A DNA stretch of 64,000 nucleotides from Bacillota bacterium (lineage in GTDB: Bacteria; Bacillota; Clostridia; Christensenellales; UBA3700): contig JAEWXG010000012.1 of NCBI GenBank assembly GCA_023396095.1, forward strand, positions 19,942 to 83,941. The letters run 5' to 3'. Positions 10,111 to 59,956 of the stretch are shown in pieces. The position numbers and the translations under genes are program-made. The notes under the pieces were generated by a model. The model saw only the letters and a program-made list of their open reading frames with translations, was not told the origin of the DNA and did no database searches. The first letter of the stretch is position 1, and every line of letters begins with the position of its first letter.

Positions 10111-11007
10111 CTAGTCAAATAATTCATTTATAAATTCAGAAGCATTAAATTTTAATAAATCATTTATTTTTTCACCAACCCCAACAAAACAAACTGGAAT
10201 CTCGTTTTCAGCACTAATTGCAAAAACTACTCCTCCTTTTGCTGTTCCGTCAAGCTTATTCAATATAATCCCATCAATATCTATAAATTCACTAAATGTA
10301 TCTACTTGAGAAACTGCATTTTGTCCTGTTGTAGCATCAATTACAATATATGTTCTATAATCTGCTTCAGGCCATTCTTTGCCTACTACTCTATTAATTT
10401 TTGCTAGTTCGTTCATTAAATTCTTTTTATTTTGCAATCTTCCTGCAGTATCAATTAAAACAACATTATCTTTTTTCGATTTAGCTGACGAAATAGCATC
10501 ATATACAACTGCTGCGGCATCCGCTCCTTCATATTGCTTAACTATCCTTACACCAGCTCTTTCAGCCCACACTGTTAGTTGATCTGCAGCAGCTGCTCTA
10601 AATGTATCTCCTGCAGCTACAACAACTGATTTATTTTGATCTTTAAAATATTTAGCTAATTTCCCTATCGCAGTGGTTTTGCCAACACCATTAACTCCCG
10701 CAACTAAAATAACAAGGGGATATTGATATTCAGGAATATCATAATCTATACTTTCTAGCATAGTTTCTTTTAATAATTCCTTGGCATCTTCTGTATTATT
10801 AATCTTTTTTCTAAAACATTTATCTTTAAACCCTTCAAGAATTTCTTCTGTCGCTTTTACCCCGATATCGGCAGAAATTAATGCAATTTCCAGTTCATTA
10901 AAAAATTCATCATCTAATTTTCTACCAGTGAACATTGAGTATATTTTTTTTGAAAAATTTTCTTTTGTCTTTTTAATACTATCTTTTATTTTAGAAAAAA
11001 ATCCCAT
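10111..11007 (-). CDS. ftsY: Signal recognition particle receptor FtsY (NG domain only)
   Basis: 298 aa. SRP-GTPase motifs GVNGVGKTT, DTAGR and NKLDGTAKGG. Confidence 0.93.
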   Translation of the reverse strand: MGFFSKIKDSIKKTKENFSKKIYSMFTGRKLDDEFFNELEIALISADIGVKATEEILEGFKDKCFRKKINNTEDAKELLKETMLESIDYDIPEYQYPLVILVAGVNGVGKTTAIGKLAKYFKDQNKSVVVAAGDTFRAAAADQLTVWAERAGVRIVKQYEGADAAAVVYDAISSAKSKKDNVVLIDTAGRLQNKKNLMNELAKINRVVGKEWPEADYRTYIVIDATTGQNAVSQVDTFSEFIDIDGIILNKLDGTAKGGVVFAISAENEIPVCFVGVGEKINDLLKFNASEFINELFD

Positions 11008-18396: not shown

Positions 18397-19452
18397 TTAA
18401 ATTGTTACCACAGGTTTAATCAAATCTGCAGGTTTGTTTTTCATTAATAATAAAGCATCTTCAACATGCTTAAACCCTTTAAATCTATGCGTTAACAACG
18501 GAGTTACATCCAATTTTTTATACTCAATTAGGCTAGCCAATTTTTGTAACCTTAAACGTCCACCTGGCATTAACCCGCCATTAATTTGTTTATGTCCCAT
18601 TCCTACTCCCCATTCAATACGTGGAATAGTAATATTTAACCCCTCTCCTAAATAGTTAACGTTTCCTATTTTTCCACCTGGTTTTAATGATTTAATAGCA
18701 GGCTCAAAAGTTTCAACGCCACCGCCTGCAATGATAACTTTATCCACCCCTTGCCCGTGAGTTAATTCTAATACCTGCTGTTCAATTGGTCCTTCTTTGT
18801 ATCCAATAAAATCAGTAGCACCATATCCTTTTGCTGCATTTCTACAAACTTGTCTTGTCCCAACACAAATAATTCTTGATGCACCCCTTAAATTGGCACC
18901 AGCAACTGCCATTAACCCAACTGGTCCAATTCCAATTACTAAAACTGTGTCTCCAAATTTAACATCTGCAAGCTCAACGCCATGAAATCCTGTAGGTACC
19001 ATATCAGACAACATACAAGCTTCTTCTGGAGTTATGCTATCTGGCAATTTTGCCAAATTGGAATCTGCTTCGTTTACATGGAAATATTCGCCGAAAACAC
19101 CATCTTTAAAGTTAGAAAATTTCCAGCCTGCTAGCATTCCGCCAGAGTGCATTGAATAACCACCTTGCGCCTCAAGTGAGCCCCAATCTGGAGTAATAGC
19201 AGCGACCATTACCCTATCTCCTGGTTTAAAGTCTCTTACTAAGCTACCTACTTCTTCAACTACTCCACAGCCCTCATGCCCTAAAATCATATTATGCCTC
19301 TCACCTATTGCTCCTTCCCAAACAGTATGTACATCTGATGTACAAGGTGACAGAGCTAATGGACGAACAATAGCATCTAAGGGACCACAAACTGGACGCT
19401 CTTTTTCAATCCACCCAATTTTACCTATTTCTAACATCGCAAAGCCTTTCAT
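18397..19452 (-). CDS. adh: Zn-dependent NADP-type (secondary) alcohol dehydrogenase
   Basis: 351 aa from ATG 19452 (SD GGAAGGAGG); the track start 19470 is an upstream GTG. Motifs CTSDVH and GHEGCGVVEEVG (Zn ligands) and GIGPVGLMAVAGA (Rossmann fold). Resembles the Thermoanaerobacter/C. beijerinckii/Entamoeba ADH1 type. Confidence 0.88.
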   Translation of the reverse strand: MKGFAMLEIGKIGWIEKERPVCGPLDAIVRPLALSPCTSDVHTVWEGAIGERHNMILGHEGCGVVEEVGSLVRDFKPGDRVMVAAITPDWGSLEAQGGYSMHSGGMLAGWKFSNFKDGVFGEYFHVNEADSNLAKLPDSITPEEACMLSDMVPTGFHGVELADVKFGDTVLVIGIGPVGLMAVAGANLRGASRIICVGTRQVCRNAAKGYGATDFIGYKEGPIEQQVLELTHGQGVDKVIIAGGGVETFEPAIKSLKPGGKIGNVNYLGEGLNITIPRIEWGVGMGHKQINGGLMPGGRLRLQKLASLIEYKKLDVTPLLTHRFKGFKHVEDALLLMKNKPADLIKPVVTI

Positions 19453-31809: not shown

Positions 31810-31883
31810 GCGGGTGTAATTCAATGGTAGAATATCAGCCTTCCAAGCTGGATGCGTGGGTCCGATTCCCATCACCCGCTCCA
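31810..31883 (+). tRNA. tRNA-Gly (anticodon TCC)
   Basis: Acceptor stem GCGGGTG/CACCCGC, anticodon loop CTTCCAA, T-loop GGTCCGATTCC, encoded CCA. Confidence 0.9.
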
Positions 31884-31891
31884 TTTTTTTT

Positions 31892-31968
<77 letters not shown>

Positions 31969-31971
31969 TAT

Positions 31972-32049
31972 GGTGGGTATAGCTCAGTTGGTTAGAGCGC
32001 CAGGTTGTGGCCCTGGAGGTCAAGGGTTCGAATCCCTTTACTCACCCCA
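31972..32049 (+). tRNA. tRNA-His (anticodon GTG), with encoded G-1
   Basis: Extra 5' G opposite discriminator C, acceptor stem GTGGGTA/TACTCAC, anticodon loop TTGTGGC, encoded CCA. Confidence 0.9.
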
Positions 32050-32072
32050 CAACAAACATGCTTTACCATTAT

Positions 32073-32148
32073 TGGGGTGTCGCCAAGTGGTTAAGGCACC
32101 GGATTTTGATTCCGGCATTCGCAGGTTCAAATCCTGCCACCCCAGCCA
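32073..32148 (+). tRNA. tRNA-Gln (anticodon TTG)
   Basis: Acceptor stem TGGGGTG/CACCCCA, anticodon loop TTTTGAT, encoded CCA. Confidence 0.9.
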
Positions 32149-32153
32149 ATCAA

Positions 32154-32228
32154 TGGGGTATCGCCAAGCGGTAAGGCATCAGACTCTGACTCTGACATTC
32201 GTAGGTTCAAATCCTACTACCCCAGCCA
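32154..32228 (+). tRNA. tRNA-Gln (anticodon CTG)
   Basis: Acceptor stem TGGGGTA/TACCCCA, anticodon loop CTCTGAC, encoded CCA. Confidence 0.9.
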
Positions 32229-32239
32229 AAGTCAAGTAT

Positions 32240-32315
32240 GGTTCATTAGCTCAGATGGTAGAGCACATGACTTTTAATCATGGTGTCCCGGGTTCGATTC
32301 CCGGATGAGCCACCA
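32240..32315 (+). tRNA. tRNA-Lys (anticodon TTT)
   Basis: Acceptor stem GGTTCAT/ATGAGCC, anticodon loop CTTTTAA, GGTTCGATTCC T-arm, encoded CCA. Confidence 0.9.
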
Positions 32316-32342
32316 AAAAATAATTGCACATTAAAATTTTAT

Positions 32343-32426
32343 GCGGATGTGGCGAAACTGGCAGACGCGCTAGACTTAGGATCTAGTGTCTACGACATGG
32401 AGGTTCGAGTCCTCTCATCCGCACCA
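32343..32426 (+). tRNA. tRNA-Leu (anticodon TAG), long variable arm
   Basis: 84 nt. Acceptor stem GCGGATG/CATCCGC, anticodon loop CTTAGGA, variable arm GTGTCTACGACAT, encoded CCA. Confidence 0.9.
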
Positions 32427-32439
32427 ATTTTCTTTATAA

Positions 32440-32514
32440 GCGGAAGTGGCTCAGTGGTAGAGCGTCGCCTTGCCAAGGCGAATGTCGCGAGTTCGAATCT
32501 CGTCTTCCGCTCCA
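32440..32514 (+). tRNA. tRNA-Gly (anticodon GCC)
   Basis: Acceptor stem GCGGAAG/CTTCCGC, anticodon loop TTGCCAA, encoded CCA. Confidence 0.9.
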
Positions 32515-32522
32515 TTTTTTTT

Positions 32523-32598
32523 GTGCGATTAGCTCAGTTGGTAGAGCAACTGACTCTTAATCAGTGGGTCCAGGGTTCGAATCCCTGATCGCGCACCA
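32523..32598 (+). tRNA. tRNA-Lys (anticodon CTT)
   Basis: Acceptor stem GTGCGAT/ATCGCGC, anticodon loop CTCTTAA, encoded CCA. Confidence 0.88.
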
Positions 32599-43663: not shown

Positions 43664-43763
43664 TAAAAATTAAACATGTTTAACATTTCTTTCTATTAAA
43701 ATTCTAAATTATTTTTACTAAAAAATCTGTTCTTATTACTTTTTAGTACAGCAATACACCATA

Positions 43764-43794
43764 AAAAAAGCAGTAAAACTTTACTGCTTTTTTT
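43764..43794. terminator. Bidirectional terminator downstream of mscL
   Basis: GCAGTAAA-ac-TTTACTGC stem flanked by A and T runs. Confidence 0.8.
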
Positions 43795-43878
43795 ATATTT
43801 CATTACAATCTTAATCAACCAAAACTCTTACGAGGAGAAACGCTCGTGTAAAATTTTAACTATTAATTTTTAAAGAGA

Positions 43879-44286
43879 CTATTCAGCTACCTTTTCTTCA
43901 GTTGCTTTGTCTGACTTCTCTATTTCTTTCTTATGTAATGGCTTTGAAATATTGTGCATTACATTTGATACCTTCATAGCAATCTTTAAAGCAACAAAAA
44001 TAGTTAATGCTATCAATAGGAAATTGATTACACTTTGTATAAAGTTCCCCCATTTCAAAATACTTGACACAGTATCTCCATGTTTTAACTCAGTTTCAAG
44101 TTTTGTCATATCAACCCTGAACATCCACCAAATTACTGGCATTATAATATCATCAACCAAGCTCTTTACAATTGCCTGAAAAGCAACACCCATAACAAAA
44201 GCAATCGCTAAATCAATAACATTTCCTTTGTTTATAAATTCTATGAATTCCTTAAAAAAACCCTTCTTTTTACCATCTTCACTCAT
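43879..44286 (-). CDS. mscL: Large-conductance mechanosensitive channel MscL
   Basis: 135 aa. FKEFIEFINKGNVIDLAIAFVMGVAF is the MscL TM1 signature. Confidence 0.92.
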   Translation of the reverse strand: MSEDGKKKGFFKEFIEFINKGNVIDLAIAFVMGVAFQAIVKSLVDDIIMPVIWWMFRVDMTKLETELKHGDTVSSILKWGNFIQSVINFLLIALTIFVALKIAMKVSNVMHNISKPLHKKEIEKSDKATEEKVAE

Positions 44287-44305: not shown

Positions 44306-45175
44306 TTATTTTTTTCTCTTCTTACCTAAAAAGAATACAGCTAAAGATTCAGCTCCAGCGTGTGATCCAACAACTTTATTTACATAACCAAACTTAAATT
44401 GTACATCCGGTATTGATCTTTGGATTTGTTCAGCAAACGCTTCTGCGTCTTCCAAGCAATCTCCATGCTCAATTAAAATGTACTCATTCATCTCAGGGAT
44501 ATAGCTTTCTTGAAGATATGAGATCATTTCACGCAATGCCTTTTTTCTTCCTACAACTTTCCCTACTGGCGTTATTTTACCTGCTACATTTAGCGATAAA
44601 ATTGGATTAATTTGTAAAATCTCGCCTACAAGTGCTTTCGCCAAACTTATTCTTCCACCTTTTGCTAAAAATGTTATATCTCTAATAATAAAATAGTGAT
44701 GCGTATTCAATCGATTATCATTAACCCATTGCTCAAGTTCTTCAATAGTTTTACCTCTTTGCTTCATTTTAAAAGCATAATAAACTAATAAACCCTCACC
44801 ACCGGCACCAGATAATGTATCAACAACTCTTATCTTATTACCTGGATATTCCTTTTCCAGATTGGTCGCCATACTATGAACATTTTCATAACTTCCTGAC
44901 ATTCCTGAAGAAAAAGAGAAATATATAATATCTAAATTTTTCTCTAAATATTCTCTGAAAATTTTCTCTACATAACTTACATTAATTTGAGAAGTTTTAG
45001 GAACTTTACCTTGCCTTAAAAGCTTATAGTATTCAACGATATCAATTGGATTAGTTTCATTATAAACTTTTGCATCAACAACACAAGGCATATTTAAAAT
45101 CACAACATCTTGTTCAAGATCAATGTCGATTGGTATACCGGCTGTCTCATCCGTTATTATTATATAATTTTTCAT
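44306..45175 (-). CDS. DegV-family fatty-acid-binding protein (FakB-like)
   Basis: 289 aa with full-length DegV-like pattern (IIITDETAGIP...; SGMSGSYEN; GGRIS). Confidence 0.85.
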   Translation of the reverse strand: MKNYIIITDETAGIPIDIDLEQDVVILNMPCVVDAKVYNETNPIDIVEYYKLLRQGKVPKTSQINVSYVEKIFREYLEKNLDIIYFSFSSGMSGSYENVHSMATNLEKEYPGNKIRVVDTLSGAGGEGLLVYYAFKMKQRGKTIEELEQWVNDNRLNTHHYFIIRDITFLAKGGRISLAKALVGEILQINPILSLNVAGKITPVGKVVGRKKALREMISYLQESYIPEMNEYILIEHGDCLEDAEAFAEQIQRSIPDVQFKFGYVNKVVGSHAGAESLAVFFLGKKRKK

Positions 45176-45177
45176 TT

Positions 45178-46437
45178 TTATCCCTTTTTAACTAAAACTT
45201 TCTTTAGCTTGGCAAATCTAGGCAAGCCATCCTCTAATGGGGCCTTTATATCACCTTGAATTAATGGTAAGGCATAATCAATAAATTCCTTTTTTAATGA
45301 TACCTTATCTTCACCAATCCAATCTTGCGGAATTTTCTTTTCTTCGTTTGCACTCTTTGATAAATTTAATGACTTCATAACAGATTTGTAATTGCCTTTA
45401 GAATCAGTTGTTCTTACAATGATTACCATTTTATCAGTTACCCCTCTTACAGCGAACTTAACTGCTGCTTGACCGGCTTTAAATGCTTCCATTACATCAA
45501 CTTTAGAGGCAATATGTGCACCACATCTTTGCATTAAACTAAATTCAATTCCACGTGTTTTGCAAGAGAATTTATTAGCACAAGCAGCTGATAACCCTGC
45601 TGCTAAACCACCTAATTGAGTATGTCCAAAGGAATCTTTTGCGCCCGCTGATGCTAATAATTCCATAACATATTTCCCCTCAGCTGTTTTAATGCCTTCC
45701 GAAACAGCAATAATGCACTTCCCTTTATTCTTATCCAAAACTTTTTGAACATCATCATAAAATTTTTCAAATGAAAATGGAACTTCCGGTAAATATATTA
45801 AATCTGGTCCCATGCCTTTTGCTGTTGCAAGACTAGATGCTGCAGTAAGCCAACCTGCATTTCTTCCCATAATTTCAATGACTGTAATAATTGGAGTATC
45901 ATAAACATTGGCGTCTAAGAAAATTTCCATGCATGTAGTTGCTACATATTTTGCAGCAGAACCATATCCCGGACAATGATCAGTTCCAAATAAATCATTA
46001 TCAATTGTTTTAGGTACACCTATTACACGGCACTCATATCCAACTTTTTTCATATACTTACTAATTTTGTTGCAAGTATCCATTGAATCATTTCCTCCAT
46101 TGTAGAAGAAATATCTGATATTATATTTTTTGAATACCTCTAACAACCTTTTATAATCCGTTTCATCAACTTTTACATCCTTTAATTTATATCTTACTGA
46201 ACCTAAAGCAGAAGATGGGGTGTATTTTAACAAATCCAATTCCTTTGCATCTTCTAAAGAAATATCATAGAATTCTTCATTCAAAATTCCTCTTACTCCA
46301 TGAGCAGCACCATATACCGCAGTAATACAATCTTGTTTTAACGCCTCTGTAAAAACCCCTGCCGCACTAGAATTAATAACCGATGTTGGTCCTCCAGATT
46401 GCCCAAAAATACAAGCTCCTACTAATTTTTCTTTCAT
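45178..46437 (-). CDS. pfp: Pyrophosphate-dependent phosphofructokinase (PPi-PFK)
   Basis: 419 aa. PFK fold with GGNDS (Asp in place of the ATP-type Gly) and PKTIDND (Lys in place of Gly), the established PPi-specificity signatures. Confidence 0.8.
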   Translation of the reverse strand: MKEKLVGACIFGQSGGPTSVINSSAAGVFTEALKQDCITAVYGAAHGVRGILNEEFYDISLEDAKELDLLKYTPSSALGSVRYKLKDVKVDETDYKRLLEVFKKYNIRYFFYNGGNDSMDTCNKISKYMKKVGYECRVIGVPKTIDNDLFGTDHCPGYGSAAKYVATTCMEIFLDANVYDTPIITVIEIMGRNAGWLTAASSLATAKGMGPDLIYLPEVPFSFEKFYDDVQKVLDKNKGKCIIAVSEGIKTAEGKYVMELLASAGAKDSFGHTQLGGLAAGLSAACANKFSCKTRGIEFSLMQRCGAHIASKVDVMEAFKAGQAAVKFAVRGVTDKMVIIVRTTDSKGNYKSVMKSLNLSKSANEEKKIPQDWIGEDKVSLKKEFIDYALPLIQGDIKAPLEDGLPRFAKLKKVLVKKG

Positions 46438-46450
46438 ATAACCTCCAAAT

Positions 46451-47410
46451 TTATAGACTTATTTGTCTAGCGTATTTATATAACTTTTTATCAAATTTGC
46501 GCTTTAAACTCAAAGCTTTTGTTGTATCCATATCTATAATTTTATTATTTTTGATTCCTACAACCCTATTAAATTTACCAGCTTTAACCAATTCTATTGC
46601 CCTAATACCAAATTGTGCCGCTAAATATCTATCTAAAGCAGATGGCGTTCCACCTCTTTGAATATGCCCCAATCTTGTTGTCCATACTTTAACACCAAGC
46701 TGCCTTGTAATTTCATTGTTTAAATATTCAGCTTGACAAAATCCTTCAGCCAAAACAATAATTTCAGAAGATTTCCCATTAGCACGATTCTCTTGTATTT
46801 GTGCAACAATTTTATTAATTGAACAAGGTATTTCTGGCACCAAAATAATTTCAGCACCACCTGCAATACCTGCTCTAAGTGCTAAATCCCCACAATGTCT
46901 CCCCATTACTTCCACAATACTTATTCTATCGTGAGAAATCATTGTATCTCGCAAATTATTTATTGCCCCAATAACTGTGTTTGATGCTGTATCAAAACCA
47001 ATTGTATAATCTGTATATTGCAAATCATTATCTATTGTCCCCGGAATACCAATACACTTGGCTCCACAAGTTCTATAAAAATCCTCTGCACCTCTAAATG
47101 TTCCATCTCCCCCAATAACAATTATTGCATCTATCCCTTGCTCTTGCATATTAGCATAAGCGGTCTTCATCCCTTCTAAAGTAATAAACTCATCACTTCT
47201 TGCAGTTTTTAATTTTGTACCACCACGTTGGATAATATCAGAAACATCTCTTCTTTGAAGTGGAACATATCTATTTTTAACTAGTCCATTGTACCCTCTA
47301 ACAATACCAACAACTTCCATTCCATTAGCAATAGCAGCCCTTGTTACAGCTCTAATCGCTGCGTTCATCCCAGGAGCATCGCCACCACTTGTTAAAACAC
47401 CGATTTTCAT
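46451..47410 (-). CDS. pfkA: ATP-dependent 6-phosphofructokinase
   Basis: 319 aa. Motifs MKIGVLTSGGDAPGMNAAIR, GGDGTFRGA and GIPGTIDNDL (Gly/Gly ATP-type). Confidence 0.93.
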   Translation of the reverse strand: MKIGVLTSGGDAPGMNAAIRAVTRAAIANGMEVVGIVRGYNGLVKNRYVPLQRRDVSDIIQRGGTKLKTARSDEFITLEGMKTAYANMQEQGIDAIIVIGGDGTFRGAEDFYRTCGAKCIGIPGTIDNDLQYTDYTIGFDTASNTVIGAINNLRDTMISHDRISIVEVMGRHCGDLALRAGIAGGAEIILVPEIPCSINKIVAQIQENRANGKSSEIIVLAEGFCQAEYLNNEITRQLGVKVWTTRLGHIQRGGTPSALDRYLAAQFGIRAIELVKAGKFNRVVGIKNNKIIDMDTTKALSLKRKFDKKLYKYARQISL

Positions 47411-47412
47411 AT

Positions 47413-47658
47413 TTATTTATCTCCCGACTTAATCATTCCAAATTTTGTATAAACTTCAACCTTTCCTCGAATCTTTACAGCCGAAGTCTTATCAGTAAAT
47501 TGTAAAAGTAATATTTCTCCGGGGTCTAAATTCTCAGTATGATGCGGCTTAGTTTGTGGTCCACGCGTCATACCAATAATTTGCGCTGGTCCATCTATAG
47601 CTTTAACAATAAAATAATCGTTTCCACACTCTTCAAAACATTTCTTTTCCTCGTCCAT
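47413..47658 (-). CDS. mtrB: trp RNA-binding attenuation protein (TRAP/MtrB) homologue
   Basis: 81 aa. The segment DYFIVKAIDGPAQIIGMTRGPQTKPHHTENLDPGEILLLQFTDKTSAVKIRGKVEVYTKFGMIKSG aligns by eye, roughly half identical, with B. subtilis MtrB as I recall it ([67 protein letters not shown]). Confidence 0.8.
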   Translation of the reverse strand: MDEEKKCFEECGNDYFIVKAIDGPAQIIGMTRGPQTKPHHTENLDPGEILLLQFTDKTSAVKIRGKVEVYTKFGMIKSGDK

Positions 47659-47809
47659 TCTAAAACTGTCTACTCCTATTCTCTCTTATTATATACTATA
47701 TTTTGGCATTACATAGCATTTTTATAAATTACCTACTCTAATTTTACCTACCTTGATATAAATAAAGTTCGATATGCTATTTAACCTCAACTAATTTTTC
47801 ACTAATTAA

Positions 47810-50800
47810 CTATTTAGATGCTTTATAATTTTCTTCACCTATTAATTTATCTAACTCTAATTTGCAAGCATAATTAAAATCTATACTTTGCATTAATTTA
47901 TATGCTTTTTTATTGCCGTTCTCGTCAATAACAACTTTACAACATTCAACATTACCAGGATAATATCTTAAAATTTCTATCAATTTATTCTGCGTATCAT
48001 TTGTTAAATCTTTCCAATTAAAATATATCTTTTTAAAAGTTTCATCATTTTCAATCGGAAAAACTTCATTAGGCATTTCATCCACCTTTAAAATCTCAAC
48101 CACATCAATCATAATTTGTGGTTTACCTGCATCTTTATCCAGATCTAATCTTCCAGAAAATATTGCTATACTATAATCATTCAAATAACTTTTAAATTTT
48201 TTTAACGCAGTATTAAACATTACTGCAGCAATAGTGCCATATTGATCACTTAAATTCATTATAGCAATTTCATTCCCAGTTTTAGTTTTTTTGATTTTTA
48301 AATCATTAATTTCTGCAAGAAATTTTACCTGTTTCTTGTCATACTCACGCTTTAACAATGATAATTCAACATTCTCTTCTTCATCTATAGATTGCTCTTC
48401 TTCATCGTTATCATCATTTTTCTCCTCAGCCTGAACATTAATCAAATCAACAATTTCAAACAATGTAAAGTACTTTTCTTTCTCAACTAAATCCTTGTAC
48501 GACTCTAACGGATGTCCTGTTATATACATATGACAAACATTTTTTTCCATTCTTAACACGTCAATTAAAGGATACTCTTGCACTACTTCAATACTTTCAT
48601 ATTCTTCTTGTGCATCACCTAATAAATTGATGTCATATAAATCAAATAAAGTTAATTGCCCTTCCTCAACTGTTTTTCTTCTTTCGATTTCATTTTTAAT
48701 GTAAAGTTCTCCGCCTATCATTAATGTAGAAATATTTTGTCCACAGGACCTAAAAGCTCCTGCCTGCACTAATGCAATTAATGTTTTCTTTTGTAATGAT
48801 TTTACATCTAGCCGACGAACCATTTCTTCAAACGACTTATATTCACCATTCTTGTCCCTTTCTCCAATTATTTCATCAACTATTTTTTCACCAACTTCTT
48901 TTAATGCAAGCATACCAAAACGAACAGCATTATTTTCAACAGAAAAATACATTCCACTTTTATTTATATCAGGAGGCAAAATTCTTATATCTTTGCTCAT
49001 GAGGTAATATAAATATTTTTTAAGATCATCAAACTTAGAAATTCGATTATTAAGCATAGCTGTAATAAATTCCAAAAAATGATATCTCTTCAAATATGCT
49101 GTTTGATATGAAATATGGGCATAAGCTGCCGCATGTGACTTATTAAATGCATAAGCTGCAAACTTCGACATTTCCTCATATATTTTTGTTGCAACTTCTT
49201 CAGATACTCCCATGTTAACTGCACCTTTAGCAGGCGCTTGATATGGAATCTTTATAGTCCCATCAGGATGCCTCTCCTCTTTTGTTTCAGGATATCCATA
49301 CAAAAAACGAACTTTTTCTTTTTCCATTTCTTTTGGTTTTTTCTTAGACATAATTCTTCTAATTGCATCAGCTCCACCAAAAGAATATCCGGCCAATTCT
49401 TTAACTATTTGCATAACCTGCTCTTGATAAACCATATAGCCATATGTAACATTCAAAATTTTTTCAAGTTTCGGATGCAAATATTTTACTAATTCTGGAT
49501 TCCTTTTACACTGAATATATTTATCAATATTCTCCATAGGACCAGGTCTATATAAAGAAATTCCAGCTATTATATCTTCCATACAGGATGGTTTATAATT
49601 CTTCATGAACTTTTGCATGCCTCCAGATTCTAATTGAAATACACCATATGTATCTCCAGATGCAATTAATTCATAAACATTAGGATCTTCATATCCTAAC
49701 TCATTAAAGTTTATTACTTCCCCTGTCTTTTTTTGCACATATTTTTTAGCTAAATCAATATCTGTTAATGTATTCAATGCTAAAAAATCCATTTTTAGCA
49801 TTCCCAATTTTTCCACTTCGTCTTTAGTAAATTGAGTATTTAAAAATCCACCACTTAAGTAAAGTGGAACATAATCAGAAATTACCTCTTTACATATAAC
49901 AACTCCGGCAGCGTGAGTACCGGTATTTTTAGGCATTCCTTCCAATTTTCTAGAAACATCTAATATCTTCTTTATTTGTACATTATTGTTATATAAATCA
50001 ATAAGTTCTGCAGATGAAAAATCATCTTCCCCCGGCTTAGGCTTTTTTATCCCAAGAACTTGATCCAAAGAAGCTTTAGGGGATATAAATTTAGTATATT
50101 TATTAGATTCTTCAAAACTCATTCCATAAACTTTAGCAACACTCTTAAAAACATTTCTTGCAGCAAGCGTTCCAAAGGTAATTATTTGACAAACTTTCTC
50201 TTGCCCATATTTTTCTATAACATACTCAATTACTTCATGCCTTCTCGCAAAACAAAAATCAATATCAAAATCTGGATTTGAAACCCTTTCTGGATTTAAA
50301 AATCTATCAAAAATTAAGTTGTATTTTAAGGGATCAACATCAGTAATTCCTATTGCATAAGCAATGATTGAACCAACCCCACTACCTCTCCCCGGACCAA
50401 CTGGTATTTTTTTAGATTTTGCATAATAAATAAAATCCCATACTATCAAATAGTATTCGGCAAAACCCATGCTTATAATAACACCAAGTTCTATATCAGC
50501 TCTCTCTCTTATTTCGTCAGTTATAGTTTTATATCTTTTTTCTAATCCTTCATATGAAATTCTTCTTAAAAATTCTTCCGCAGTTTCTCCAGTGCTTGGT
50601 CTATATGGAGGAAATAACTTATGTGGTGTAATAACAACATTACATTTATCAACAATCTCTTGCGTATTATCAAGCGCTTCTTGCACATGCGGAAATATTT
50701 CCAACATCTCATCATATGTTTTTAAATAGTATTGATCATTATTAAATTTTAATCTTGTAGGATCTTCAATATTTTTTCCTGTTTGTATACAAAGCAAAAC

Positions 50801-51535
50801 ATCATGACTTTCTGCATCTTCCCTATTTAAATAATGAACATCATTTGTTGCAATTAATTTAATATTTAGTTTTTTAGCCATTTCAATAATCTTAGGATTA
50901 ACAAATTTTTGGTCCGGCAAATCATGATTTTGGATCTCTAAATAATAATCTTCCCCAAATAAATTTTTCATATATTCAGCATGTTCATACGCAGCATTAA
51001 AACGCTGTTGTAAAAACATTTGTGATATTTGCCCTTGTATACATGCTGATAAACAAATTAACCCTTTAGAATGTTTTTCCAATAAATTTAGATCAATTCT
51101 TGGCTTGCTATAAAATCCTTCCGTATAAGACAAAGACGATAATTTTACCAAATTTCTATATCCTTCTTCATTTTTTGCTATTAAAATTAAATGATATCTT
51201 TCTTTAGAATTAATGGACATACCACCTTTTACTGTCATATCATGAGCCACATAAAACTCCGATCCCATTAAAAGTTTTAAATACTCTGGTTCCTTTGCAT
51301 TTGGATCTTCTTTCAACTTATTTTTATATTCTTCTTTTAAATTTTTGTTAAAGGCATCGAATGCCGTTTGGGCTTTATATAATGCCATAATATTACCATG
51401 GTCCGTAATTGCAACCGCTCTCATTCCCTTATCATAAACATTCTTTGCCAACTCACTGATTTTACAAGCCCCATCTAAAAGACTATATTCTGTGTGTAAA
51501 TGCAAATGTGTAAATTGTCTCATCATATTCTCCAT
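47810..51535 (-). CDS. dnaE: DNA polymerase III alpha subunit DnaE
   Basis: 1241 aa. N-terminal PHP domain (FTHLHLHTEYSLLDGA), the polymerase core, and an OB-fold-like C-terminus. A GGAG SD favours a start at the ATG ATG pair at 51526/51523. Confidence 0.93.
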   Translation of the reverse strand: MENMMRQFTHLHLHTEYSLLDGACKISELAKNVYDKGMRAVAITDHGNIMALYKAQTAFDAFNKNLKEEYKNKLKEDPNAKEPEYLKLLMGSEFYVAHDMTVKGGMSINSKERYHLILIAKNEEGYRNLVKLSSLSYTEGFYSKPRIDLNLLEKHSKGLICLSACIQGQISQMFLQQRFNAAYEHAEYMKNLFGEDYYLEIQNHDLPDQKFVNPKIIEMAKKLNIKLIATNDVHYLNREDAESHDVLLCIQTGKNIEDPTRLKFNNDQYYLKTYDEMLEIFPHVQEALDNTQEIVDKCNVVITPHKLFPPYRPSTGETAEEFLRRISYEGLEKRYKTITDEIRERADIELGVIISMGFAEYYLIVWDFIYYAKSKKIPVGPGRGSGVGSIIAYAIGITDVDPLKYNLIFDRFLNPERVSNPDFDIDFCFARRHEVIEYVIEKYGQEKVCQIITFGTLAARNVFKSVAKVYGMSFEESNKYTKFISPKASLDQVLGIKKPKPGEDDFSSAELIDLYNNNVQIKKILDVSRKLEGMPKNTGTHAAGVVICKEVISDYVPLYLSGGFLNTQFTKDEVEKLGMLKMDFLALNTLTDIDLAKKYVQKKTGEVINFNELGYEDPNVYELIASGDTYGVFQLESGGMQKFMKNYKPSCMEDIIAGISLYRPGPMENIDKYIQCKRNPELVKYLHPKLEKILNVTYGYMVYQEQVMQIVKELAGYSFGGADAIRRIMSKKKPKEMEKEKVRFLYGYPETKEERHPDGTIKIPYQAPAKGAVNMGVSEEVATKIYEEMSKFAAYAFNKSHAAAYAHISYQTAYLKRYHFLEFITAMLNNRISKFDDLKKYLYYLMSKDIRILPPDINKSGMYFSVENNAVRFGMLALKEVGEKIVDEIIGERDKNGEYKSFEEMVRRLDVKSLQKKTLIALVQAGAFRSCGQNISTLMIGGELYIKNEIERRKTVEEGQLTLFDLYDINLLGDAQEEYESIEVVQEYPLIDVLRMEKNVCHMYITGHPLESYKDLVEKEKYFTLFEIVDLINVQAEEKNDDNDEEEQSIDEEENVELSLLKREYDKKQVKFLAEINDLKIKKTKTGNEIAIMNLSDQYGTIAAVMFNTALKKFKSYLNDYSIAIFSGRLDLDKDAGKPQIMIDVVEILKVDEMPNEVFPIENDETFKKIYFNWKDLTNDTQNKLIEILRYYPGNVECCKVVIDENGNKKAYKLMQSIDFNYACKLELDKLIGEENYKASK

Positions 51536-59869: not shown

Positions 59870-59956
59870 GCCGGAGTGGTGAAACTGGCAGACGCGCCAG
59901 ACTCAAAATCTGGTTGGGGAGACTCAGTGTCGGTTCGAGTCCGACCTTCGGCACCA
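59870..59956 (+). tRNA. tRNA-Leu (anticodon CAA), long variable arm
   Basis: 87 nt. Acceptor stem GCCGGAG/CTTCGGC (one G-U pair), anticodon loop CTCAAAA, GGTTCGAGTCC T-arm, encoded CCA. Confidence 0.9.

Follow-up and report, generated by a model that had tools for sequence, protein, structure and literature searches.

A divergent TRAP (MtrB) family member encoded between dnaE and pfkA in a Christensenellales genome

INTRODUCTION

TRAP (MtrB) serves in textbooks as a model for attenuation and for RNA binding that is switched on by a ligand. Its target RNAs carry about 9-11 (G/U)AG triplets separated by spacers of 2-3 nucleotides (nt), and in Bacillus subtilis the protein acts on unlinked genes too. 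Nearly all studies of TRAP have, to our knowledge, dealt with Bacillus and its close relatives. The Bacillus-type mtrAB arrangement places mtrB downstream of folE (mtrA) and near trp/aro genes; in B. subtilis itself, mtrA/folE and then mtrB are part of the spoIVA-hepS region. In this species, the trp leader contains 11 repeats (PMC3064811), and the principal RNA contacts of the protein are made by Glu36, Lys37, Lys56, and Arg58 (PMC1474065). The main chain of Lys37 hydrogen-bonds the adenine of the triplet, its aliphatic side chain being packed against base 1 (PMC1474065, PMC4854314), with Phe32 stacking on G3 (PMC4854314). A 2006 paper described the RNA- and tryptophan-binding residues as completely conserved in all TRAP sequences known at that time (PMC1474065).

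Here we analyzed an open reading frame (ORF) of 81 amino acids (aa) that lies between dnaE and pfkA in a 64-kb stretch of a Bacillota bacterium genome (assembly GCA_023396095.1, contig JAEWXG010000012.1), to which we refer as the window and whose own numbering is used for all positions. A first-pass annotation had proposed that this ORF encodes a TRAP homologue in an atypical, glycolytic gene context, preceded by a GAG/UAG-rich leader. We found that the ORF is a real, divergent member of the TRAP family by both family profile and fold, and we consider it probable that the protein works as a tryptophan-activated ring that acts in trans on RNAs encoded at other loci of the genome. By homology, 11 or 12 subunits would form a ring that takes up L-tryptophan in its inter-subunit pockets; once loaded, the ring would capture single-stranded RNA along its outer rim and thereby repress tryptophan-related genes, which would lie outside the window.

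RESULTS

The ORF encodes a divergent but constrained TRAP

The gene under study is the following:

47413..47658, minus strand: TRAP/MtrB-family ORF, 81 aa, identified by Pfam, NCBIfam, and PDB matches and by a structure model.

A profile search placed the translated ORF firmly in the Pfam family TrpBP (PF02081), with 99.1 bits against a cut-off of 21.3 and with coverage of profile positions 3-68 of 69, bearing out the assignment that had been made by eye. The best PDB sequence matches were TRAP chains only (E ~1e-19; single-domain chains), and the alignment to the B. subtilis and Geobacillus stearothermophilus proteins spanned residues 12-79. An AlphaFold2 (AF2) monomer model, built from an alignment of 59 family sequences, reached a pLDDT of 86.7, with values >90 across most of the core. 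Upon searching this model with Foldseek, we retrieved TRAP structures of four species (1qaw, 1c9s, 1wap, and 3zzl) at a TMt of 0.90-0.96 and a root-mean-square deviation (rmsd) of 0.7-1.3 Å, and the best non-TRAP match had an E value of 0.34. On the more stringent NCBIfam MtrB equivalog model (NF009724), the protein scored 102.1 bits, under the cut-off of 117 and lowest among the proteins tested, as compared to 112-142 bits for its relatives and 146 bits for a B. subtilis sequence, which marks it as a divergent member of the family.

Divergence was not accompanied by signs of decay. Comparison with the TRAP gene of an 85%-identical relative (L002) yielded a ratio of nonsynonymous to synonymous substitution rates (dN/dS) of 0.04, with dS near saturation, which points to strong purifying selection on the gene. 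Furthermore, the ORF was intact in all 57 related loci that were first retrieved, the pocket and core residues were invariant across the clade described below, and the fold prediction was confident. Hence, the notion of a decaying or non-functional relic that is merely carried along in a conserved gene row, which could draw on the low equivalog score and on the loss of two RNA-contact side chains, is effectively excluded.

The alignment also confirmed a 6-residue N-terminal extension. The CFEEC that the first-pass annotation had pointed out within it was considered as a metal or redox motif and rejected, as it is not kept even in the 85% relative (NLEETA there). The family is small: in a set of 1.84 billion representatives, it accounts for ~80 clusters at 50% identity, and at 90% identity it comprises ~2,400-2,600 clusters; a metagenome scan using the window protein as query found no relatives.

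The tryptophan pocket is kept, whereas two RNA-contact side chains are lost in a whole clade

In the following, residues carry B. subtilis numbers, i.e., the window residue number minus 6, anchored on the alignment to PDB 1wap. All nine tryptophan-pocket residues (Gly23, Thr25, Arg26, Gly27, Thr30, Gln47, Thr49, Thr52, and Ser53) are present in the window protein, in line with the earlier claim of an intact pocket, and the motifs IGMTRG, QFTDKTSAVK, KIRGK, and TENL, on which that claim had partly rested, are all found in it. Across 44 unique TRAPs, which are the sequences from dnaE/pfkA-context loci, G23, T25, R26, G27, T30, T49, and S53 never vary and Q47 and T52 hardly do; the pocket position Asp29 is variable and is Gln in the window protein.

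The RNA-contact set presents a different picture. Glu36, Lys56, and Arg58 are retained in the window protein, and among the 44 TRAPs E36 and K56 are invariant and position 58 is R or K. By contrast, Lys37 is replaced by Asn (Asn43 in the window protein), corresponding to the Lys of B. subtilis SEKL that had been noted as Asn in TENL, and Phe32 is replaced by Pro (Pro38). These two positions vary throughout the set, with N (22), K (14), or S/A/G/M/Q at position 37 and P (23), I (12), or S/L/F at position 32. Among the 120 top-scoring matches to a family-wide profile, however, both residues were invariant or nearly so, and K37 was invariant. When a profile of the divergent clade was used instead, 109 of the 120 best hits were readable by pattern match, and these fell into 23 sequences with both F and K and 86 with neither; a few of the remaining 11 keep K without F.

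A neighbor-joining tree (75 columns, no bootstrap, midpoint root) placed the sequences that lost K37 in one clade, save one Alicyclobacillaceae sequence. On the MtrB equivalog model, the members of this clade obtain 102-118 bits, close to or under its cut-off. From these sequence comparisons, the joint loss of Phe32 and Lys37 is a mark of a clade of uncultured gut Clostridia, mostly labeled Christensenellaceae, some members of which already carry the name MtrB on NCBI records of metagenome-assembled genomes (MAGs). The Alicyclobacillaceae TRAP (L042 9779-10213) is otherwise canonical, with Asn37 but Phe32 kept; it lies in a different context with a GAG-rich sequence upstream, its start codon is uncertain, and its K37N is apparently an independent change.

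What these losses imply for RNA binding can be gauged from the contacts that remain. Since both stacking side chains are lost and the hydrogen-bond contacts to A2 and G3 are retained, binding of NAG-type RNA is still plausible, and it is likewise plausible, judging from the residues present, that the affinity for such RNA or the preference for its first base is altered in the window TRAP.

The same losses bring up a rival explanation, which we regard as rather unlikely but as the most serious one, namely that the protein has changed its function. It would then still be a tryptophan-sensing ring, albeit one that reads RNA of another motif or spacing or binds a partner protein and that serves a non-trp regulon, possibly the pfkA-pfp or proBA operons that it heads. 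Such a change would fit the disappearance of F32 together with K37, the latter invariant in the family-wide set, the location of both substitutions within an otherwise strongly constrained protein, their near-confinement to one clade with borderline equivalog scores, and a lack of trp genes within ~10 kb of TRAP in any of 50 related loci (a signature scan without positive control). Against it stands the established knowledge that TRAP of B. subtilis regulates unlinked genes as well. In addition, we found no sign of a new local target: arrays of any of the 64 triplets were absent within 400 nt of any TRAP gene and elsewhere in the loci scanned. The hydrogen-bond contacts to A2 and G3 moreover involve the main chain of residue 37 along with E36, K56, and R58, all of which are retained, and base 1 of the triplet contributes little to affinity (PMC4854314).

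A bolder version of this idea, to which we give distinctly less credence, extends it to the whole group: a large gut-Clostridia TRAP clade would have kept the pocket and discarded Phe32 and Lys37, and would, by way of a changed RNA code or spacing or of a partner other than RNA, couple tryptophan status to a non-trp regulon (e.g., the central-carbon or proline operons that it heads), with the UAG-rich leader of the window as a potential non-canonical site of this kind.

The leader is rich in triplets but lacks the spacing of a TRAP site

The region upstream of the TRAP gene contains the following features:

47659..47809, minus strand: dnaE-TRAP spacer (leader), 151 nt, (G/U)AG-rich with irregular spacing, conserved in its promoter-proximal third only.
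47688..47693, minus strand: candidate -10 hexamer TATAAT, within the block TAGTATATAATA that is common with the 85% relative.
47670..47678, minus strand: UAGGAGUAG, kept in the 85% relative, which holds the sole Shine-Dalgarno sequence (GGAG, 47676-47673).

The first-pass annotation had counted 13-14 GAG/UAG triplets in the 151-nt leader against an expectation of about 4, and had advanced, as a weak hypothesis, that they form an autoregulatory TRAP site. We counted ~13 non-overlapping and 15 overlapping (G/U)AG triplets (10 UAG and 5 GAG). Mononucleotide shuffling of the leader gave 6.4±2.2 triplets (P=0.0004) and dinucleotide shuffling 10.1±1.8 (P=0.007), and all 151-nt windows of the 64 kb on both strands contained 3.3±2.2, such that the leader reaches ~4.5 times the mean. 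The enrichment thus held under shuffling, whereas the expected number proved to depend on the null that is chosen, ranging from 3.3 to 10.1. Other intergenic regions of the window stayed at or below 6.0 triplets per 151 nt, and the leader tied for first place with an unrelated coding stretch (19210-19360, minus strand) within an alcohol-dehydrogenase gene, which reaches this count by chance.

Spacing, rather than triplet count, defines a TRAP site, and for this reason the leader is not TRAP-like. Under strict rules (2-3-nt spacers), its longest chain comprised 3 triplets as compared to 1.9 in shuffled sequences, and under relaxed rules (1-4-nt spacers and one long gap) it comprised 4. As a positive control, the spacer between TRAP and the trp operon in locus L064 had a longest chain of 5 triplets by the strict and of 7 by the relaxed rules, with a hairpin and a U-run behind it. 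Apart from this control and chance matches in coding sequence, neither rule set returned a (G/U)AG array in the window or the related loci. The leader gave no Rfam match at E<=1 and contained no terminator or antiterminator, and its fold z-score of -1.8 was not unusual.

Comparison with relatives located most of the triplets in sequence that is not shared. In an alignment with its two closest relatives, the leader has in common only the promoter-like TAGTATATAATA and, around the Shine-Dalgarno sequence, AATAGGAGTAGA, and the triplet-rich upstream segment (~45 nt) is an insertion that only the window has. Within this insertion, a direct repeat, GTAGGTAA, occurs twice at 47729-47751 on the minus strand, with starts 15 nt apart, and supplies several of the triplets counted. 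Across the 120 nt upstream of TRAP in 49 leaders (those of 48 orthologous loci and the window), the median percentile of triplet content was 0.24 and only 5, the window included, had p<0.05. The candidate -10 would yield a 5' untranslated region (UTR) of ~25 nt in the window, although a consensus promoter scan found no full -35/-10 pair at this hexamer. A 5' UTR of ~25 nt is likewise indicated for the Christensenellaceae loci by a promoter-like block conserved there (judged by eye), and with TRAP-pfkA gaps of only 2-27 nt, these loci have no space for an array.

Taken together, these data make it very unlikely that a degenerate TRAP site covers the Shine-Dalgarno sequence and that tryptophan-loaded TRAP represses its own translation and, by coupling, that of pfkA. 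Such autoregulation could appeal to the density of triplets and to the run GAG-aa-UAG-(GAG)-UAG, which, as had been described, overlaps the only Shine-Dalgarno sequence, with its GGAG 14 nt from the AUG, and which coincides with the conserved UAGGAGUAG. However, the conservation of UAGGAGUAG is largely due to the Shine-Dalgarno sequence itself, several coding regions of the window do as well as the best strict run, and one coding stretch equals the density. With dinucleotide content kept, the P value is only 0.007, and the majority of the triplets fall into the insertion and upstream of the candidate -10. Orthologous leaders show no enrichment. The GAG/UAG richness does not look like a TRAP operator and would, on the alignments, rather be a lineage-specific trait of an inserted AT-rich segment.

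The gene row and its transcription

TRAP heads a row of same-strand genes, which the window presents as follows:

47810..51535, minus strand: dnaE, DNA polymerase III alpha (Pfam and synteny).
47420..47425, minus strand: pfkA Shine-Dalgarno sequence GGGAGA, within the last TRAP codons.
46451..47410, minus strand: pfkA, ATP-dependent 6-phosphofructokinase (Pfam PFK, 360 bits; TIGR02482, 392 bits with a cut-off of 371).
45178..46437, minus strand: pfp, pyrophosphate (PPi)-dependent phosphofructokinase (NCBIfam NF010675, 546 bits).
44306..45175, minus strand: DegV-family protein (Pfam DegV, 230 bits).
43879..44286, minus strand: MscL, the final gene of the same-strand row (Pfam MscL, 107 bits).
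43761..43796, no strand assigned: symmetric stem-loop between an A-run and a T-run (terminator scan, listed on the + strand).

The TAA stop of TRAP (47415-47413) is separated by 2 nt from the ATG of pfkA at 47410, with the pfkA Shine-Dalgarno sequence inside the TRAP coding sequence, and all intergenic gaps of the TRAP-pfkA-pfp-degV-mscL row measure 2-19 nt. This tight packing is consistent with the co-transcription and translational coupling that had been proposed. The stem-loop at 43761-43796 is likely a bidirectional terminator closing the unit, its use on the minus strand following from the symmetry of the hairpin. TRAP is probably transcribed together with pfkA-pfp-degV-mscL, either from a promoter within the final ~40 nt of the spacer or by read-through from dnaE, and TRAP would then be expressed with glycolytic genes simply because it has long resided there.

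As reported before, trp, folE, and pabA genes were absent from the window, both in a Pfam scan (selected non-overlapping ORFs of at least 100 aa plus two FeoA ORFs of 72 and 77 aa) and, for TrpA/B/C, FolE, and GATase signatures, in six-frame translations of the window and the related loci scanned, the latter scan being run without a positive control. Rfam at gathering threshold found only tRNAs in the whole window, which has nine consecutive tRNA genes on the + strand (31810-32595) and a tenth at 59870-59953. The ATP- and PPi-dependent phosphofructokinase genes stand in tandem (45178-47410).

A dnaE-linked home is common outside Bacillaceae

The context of TRAP turned out to be typical rather than atypical for its relatives, contrary to the initial assessment. 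Scanning one genome per bacterial species, we obtained 50 loci, mostly from MAGs labeled Christensenellaceae, Christensenella, Clostridia, Anaerotignum, [Eubacterium] saphenum, or Epulonipiscium. TRAP was preceded by dnaE within 700 nt in 42 of these loci and followed by pfkA in 38, with both neighbors present in 36 and with the pfkA-pfp pair kept in 21. Logan assemblies supplied the closest relatives (85% and 58% identity), and the Logan relatives L001-L007 display the order dnaE-TRAP-pfkA wherever their short contigs reach. In locus L037 (7943-9986), the dnaE-TRAP distance amounts to ~2 kb as compared to ~150-200 nt in close relatives, which may reflect an insertion.

A proB-type gene lies downstream of TRAP in 6 of the 50 loci (by eye), and a locus separate from these, that of the clade member P0205, carries Pfam AA_kinase and Aldedh genes in this place, consistent with proBA. 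One sub-branch of the K37-lost clade (L010, L012, L021, L022, L025, L026, and L065) has TRAP between dnaE and such a gene, with gaps of 0-4 nt, and Pfam confirmed AA_kinase and Aldedh genes (proBA-like) in L065. As the proB-type gene replaces pfkA in this sub-branch, the constant neighbor of TRAP is dnaE and not pfkA.

As a less biased check, we inspected the loci of five TRAPs that have all canonical residues and did not look Bacillaceae-like:

P0157: dnaE-TRAP-DUF2007-thioesterase.
P0150: dnaE-(nucleotidyltransferase)-TRAP-DUF2007-pfkA-pyk.
P0086: dnaE-TRAP-pfkA-pyk.
P0196: ytrH/ytrI, then TRAP-DUF2007-accA-pfkA-pyk.
P0138: TRAP immediately upstream of the trp operon.

With the exception of P0138, these sampled proteins share the dnaE/pfkA-pyk neighborhood (4 of 5). 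The Paenibacillaceae locus L056 (Marinicrinis) has a Bacillus-like spoIVA...hepS neighborhood, as judged by eye from ORF translations. In the neighbor-joining tree, dnaE-linked contexts occur on both sides of the midpoint root, from which we infer that the arrangement is ancestral; this suggests that dnaE-TRAP-pfkA is the ancestral home of the family in non-Bacillaceae Firmicutes, and the Bacillus mtrAB layout looks derived. Neither the dnaE-mtrB-pfkA arrangement nor the K37-lost clade was described in the literature searched, which left most subscription-journal papers outside, and we found there nothing relevant on TRAP in Clostridia or on tryptophan biosynthesis in Christensenellales.

A 66-aa DUF2007-like ORF directly follows TRAP in three distant lineages with canonical-residue TRAPs and is absent from the window. 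It could encode a TRAP partner. Four ORFs were recorded in this position:

L059 8308-8508: DUF2007-like ORF, 29.6 bits, over the cut-off of 25.7.
L058 8259-8459: DUF2007-like ORF, 17.7 bits, under the cut-off of 25.7.
L061 6247-6447: DUF2007-like ORF, precomputed PF09413 match.
L050 about 10230-10420: 63-aa ORF in the TRAP-pfkA spacer, resembling the DUF2007-like ORF in sequence, no Pfam match.

DISCUSSION

Our preferred reading, a tryptophan-activated TRAP ring that would act in trans, has several observations weighing against it. The equivalog score lies under its cut-off, and the RNA-contact set is incomplete; in B. subtilis TRAP, shorter side chains at residue 37 reduce RNA affinity (PMC1474065, PMC4854314). 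The search for target arrays covered the 64-kb window and the related loci, and none was found there. Furthermore, the triplet density of the leader is among the highest in the window, which makes a weak, non-canonical TRAP interaction possible at this site, and the peptide patterns used for sampling were specific to this branch, which biased the synteny frequencies toward it.

These results bear on TRAP biology beyond this locus. Outside Bacillaceae, the usual home of the TRAP gene appears to be dnaE-mtrB-pfkA, and a sizeable, strongly constrained clade of gut Clostridia does without two of the RNA-contact side chains. If this clade still binds (G/U)AG repeats, it would reveal which contacts are dispensable; if it no longer does, it would be a natural case of a re-targeted TRAP ring. 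For annotation, we suggest that missing trp linkage is no ground to doubt a TRAP call and that GAG/UAG counts without 2-3-nt spacing should not count as TRAP operators.

Comparison with known systems

The closest described proteins, the TRAPs of B. subtilis and G. stearothermophilus (1wap, 1qaw, and 1c9s), share Pfam family and fold with the window protein, with 43-48% identity over 64-69 residues and an rmsd of 0.7-1.3 Å. Common to them are the tryptophan-pocket residues and Glu36, Asp39, Glu42, Lys56, and Arg58, whereas the window protein differs by Lys37 to Asn, Phe32 to Pro, Asp29 to Gln, and His51 to Lys, as well as by its N-terminal extension of 6 residues. Unlike its Bacillus counterpart, the window TRAP lies after dnaE and before pfkA, with no (G/U)AG array or trp gene nearby. 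The Bacillus-type mtrAB arrangement was not encountered in the window, which has neither folE nor trp genes, and we regard this arrangement as a lineage trait that does not define the family.

Closer in chromosomal neighborhood are the canonical-residue proteins P0150, P0086, P0157, and P0196, which belong to the same family and keep Phe32 and Lys37, unlike the window protein; P0157 and P0196, at 137-142 bits, also differ from it in scoring over the MtrB equivalog cut-off. In three of these four loci, the DUF2007-like ORF that the window lacks follows TRAP, and the group is followed by pyk instead of pfp. P0138 (L064) represents the opposite case: 53% identical to the window protein and from the same family, it is encoded 237 nt upstream of a 777-aa DAHP-synthase/TrpE fusion that is followed by GATase (trpG), trpD, trpC, trpF, and trpB (L064 1973-8215). 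Its spacer contains two (G/U)AG clusters with 1-3-nt spacers and then a hairpin and a U-run, the layout of a classical attenuator, to which nothing in the window is comparable.

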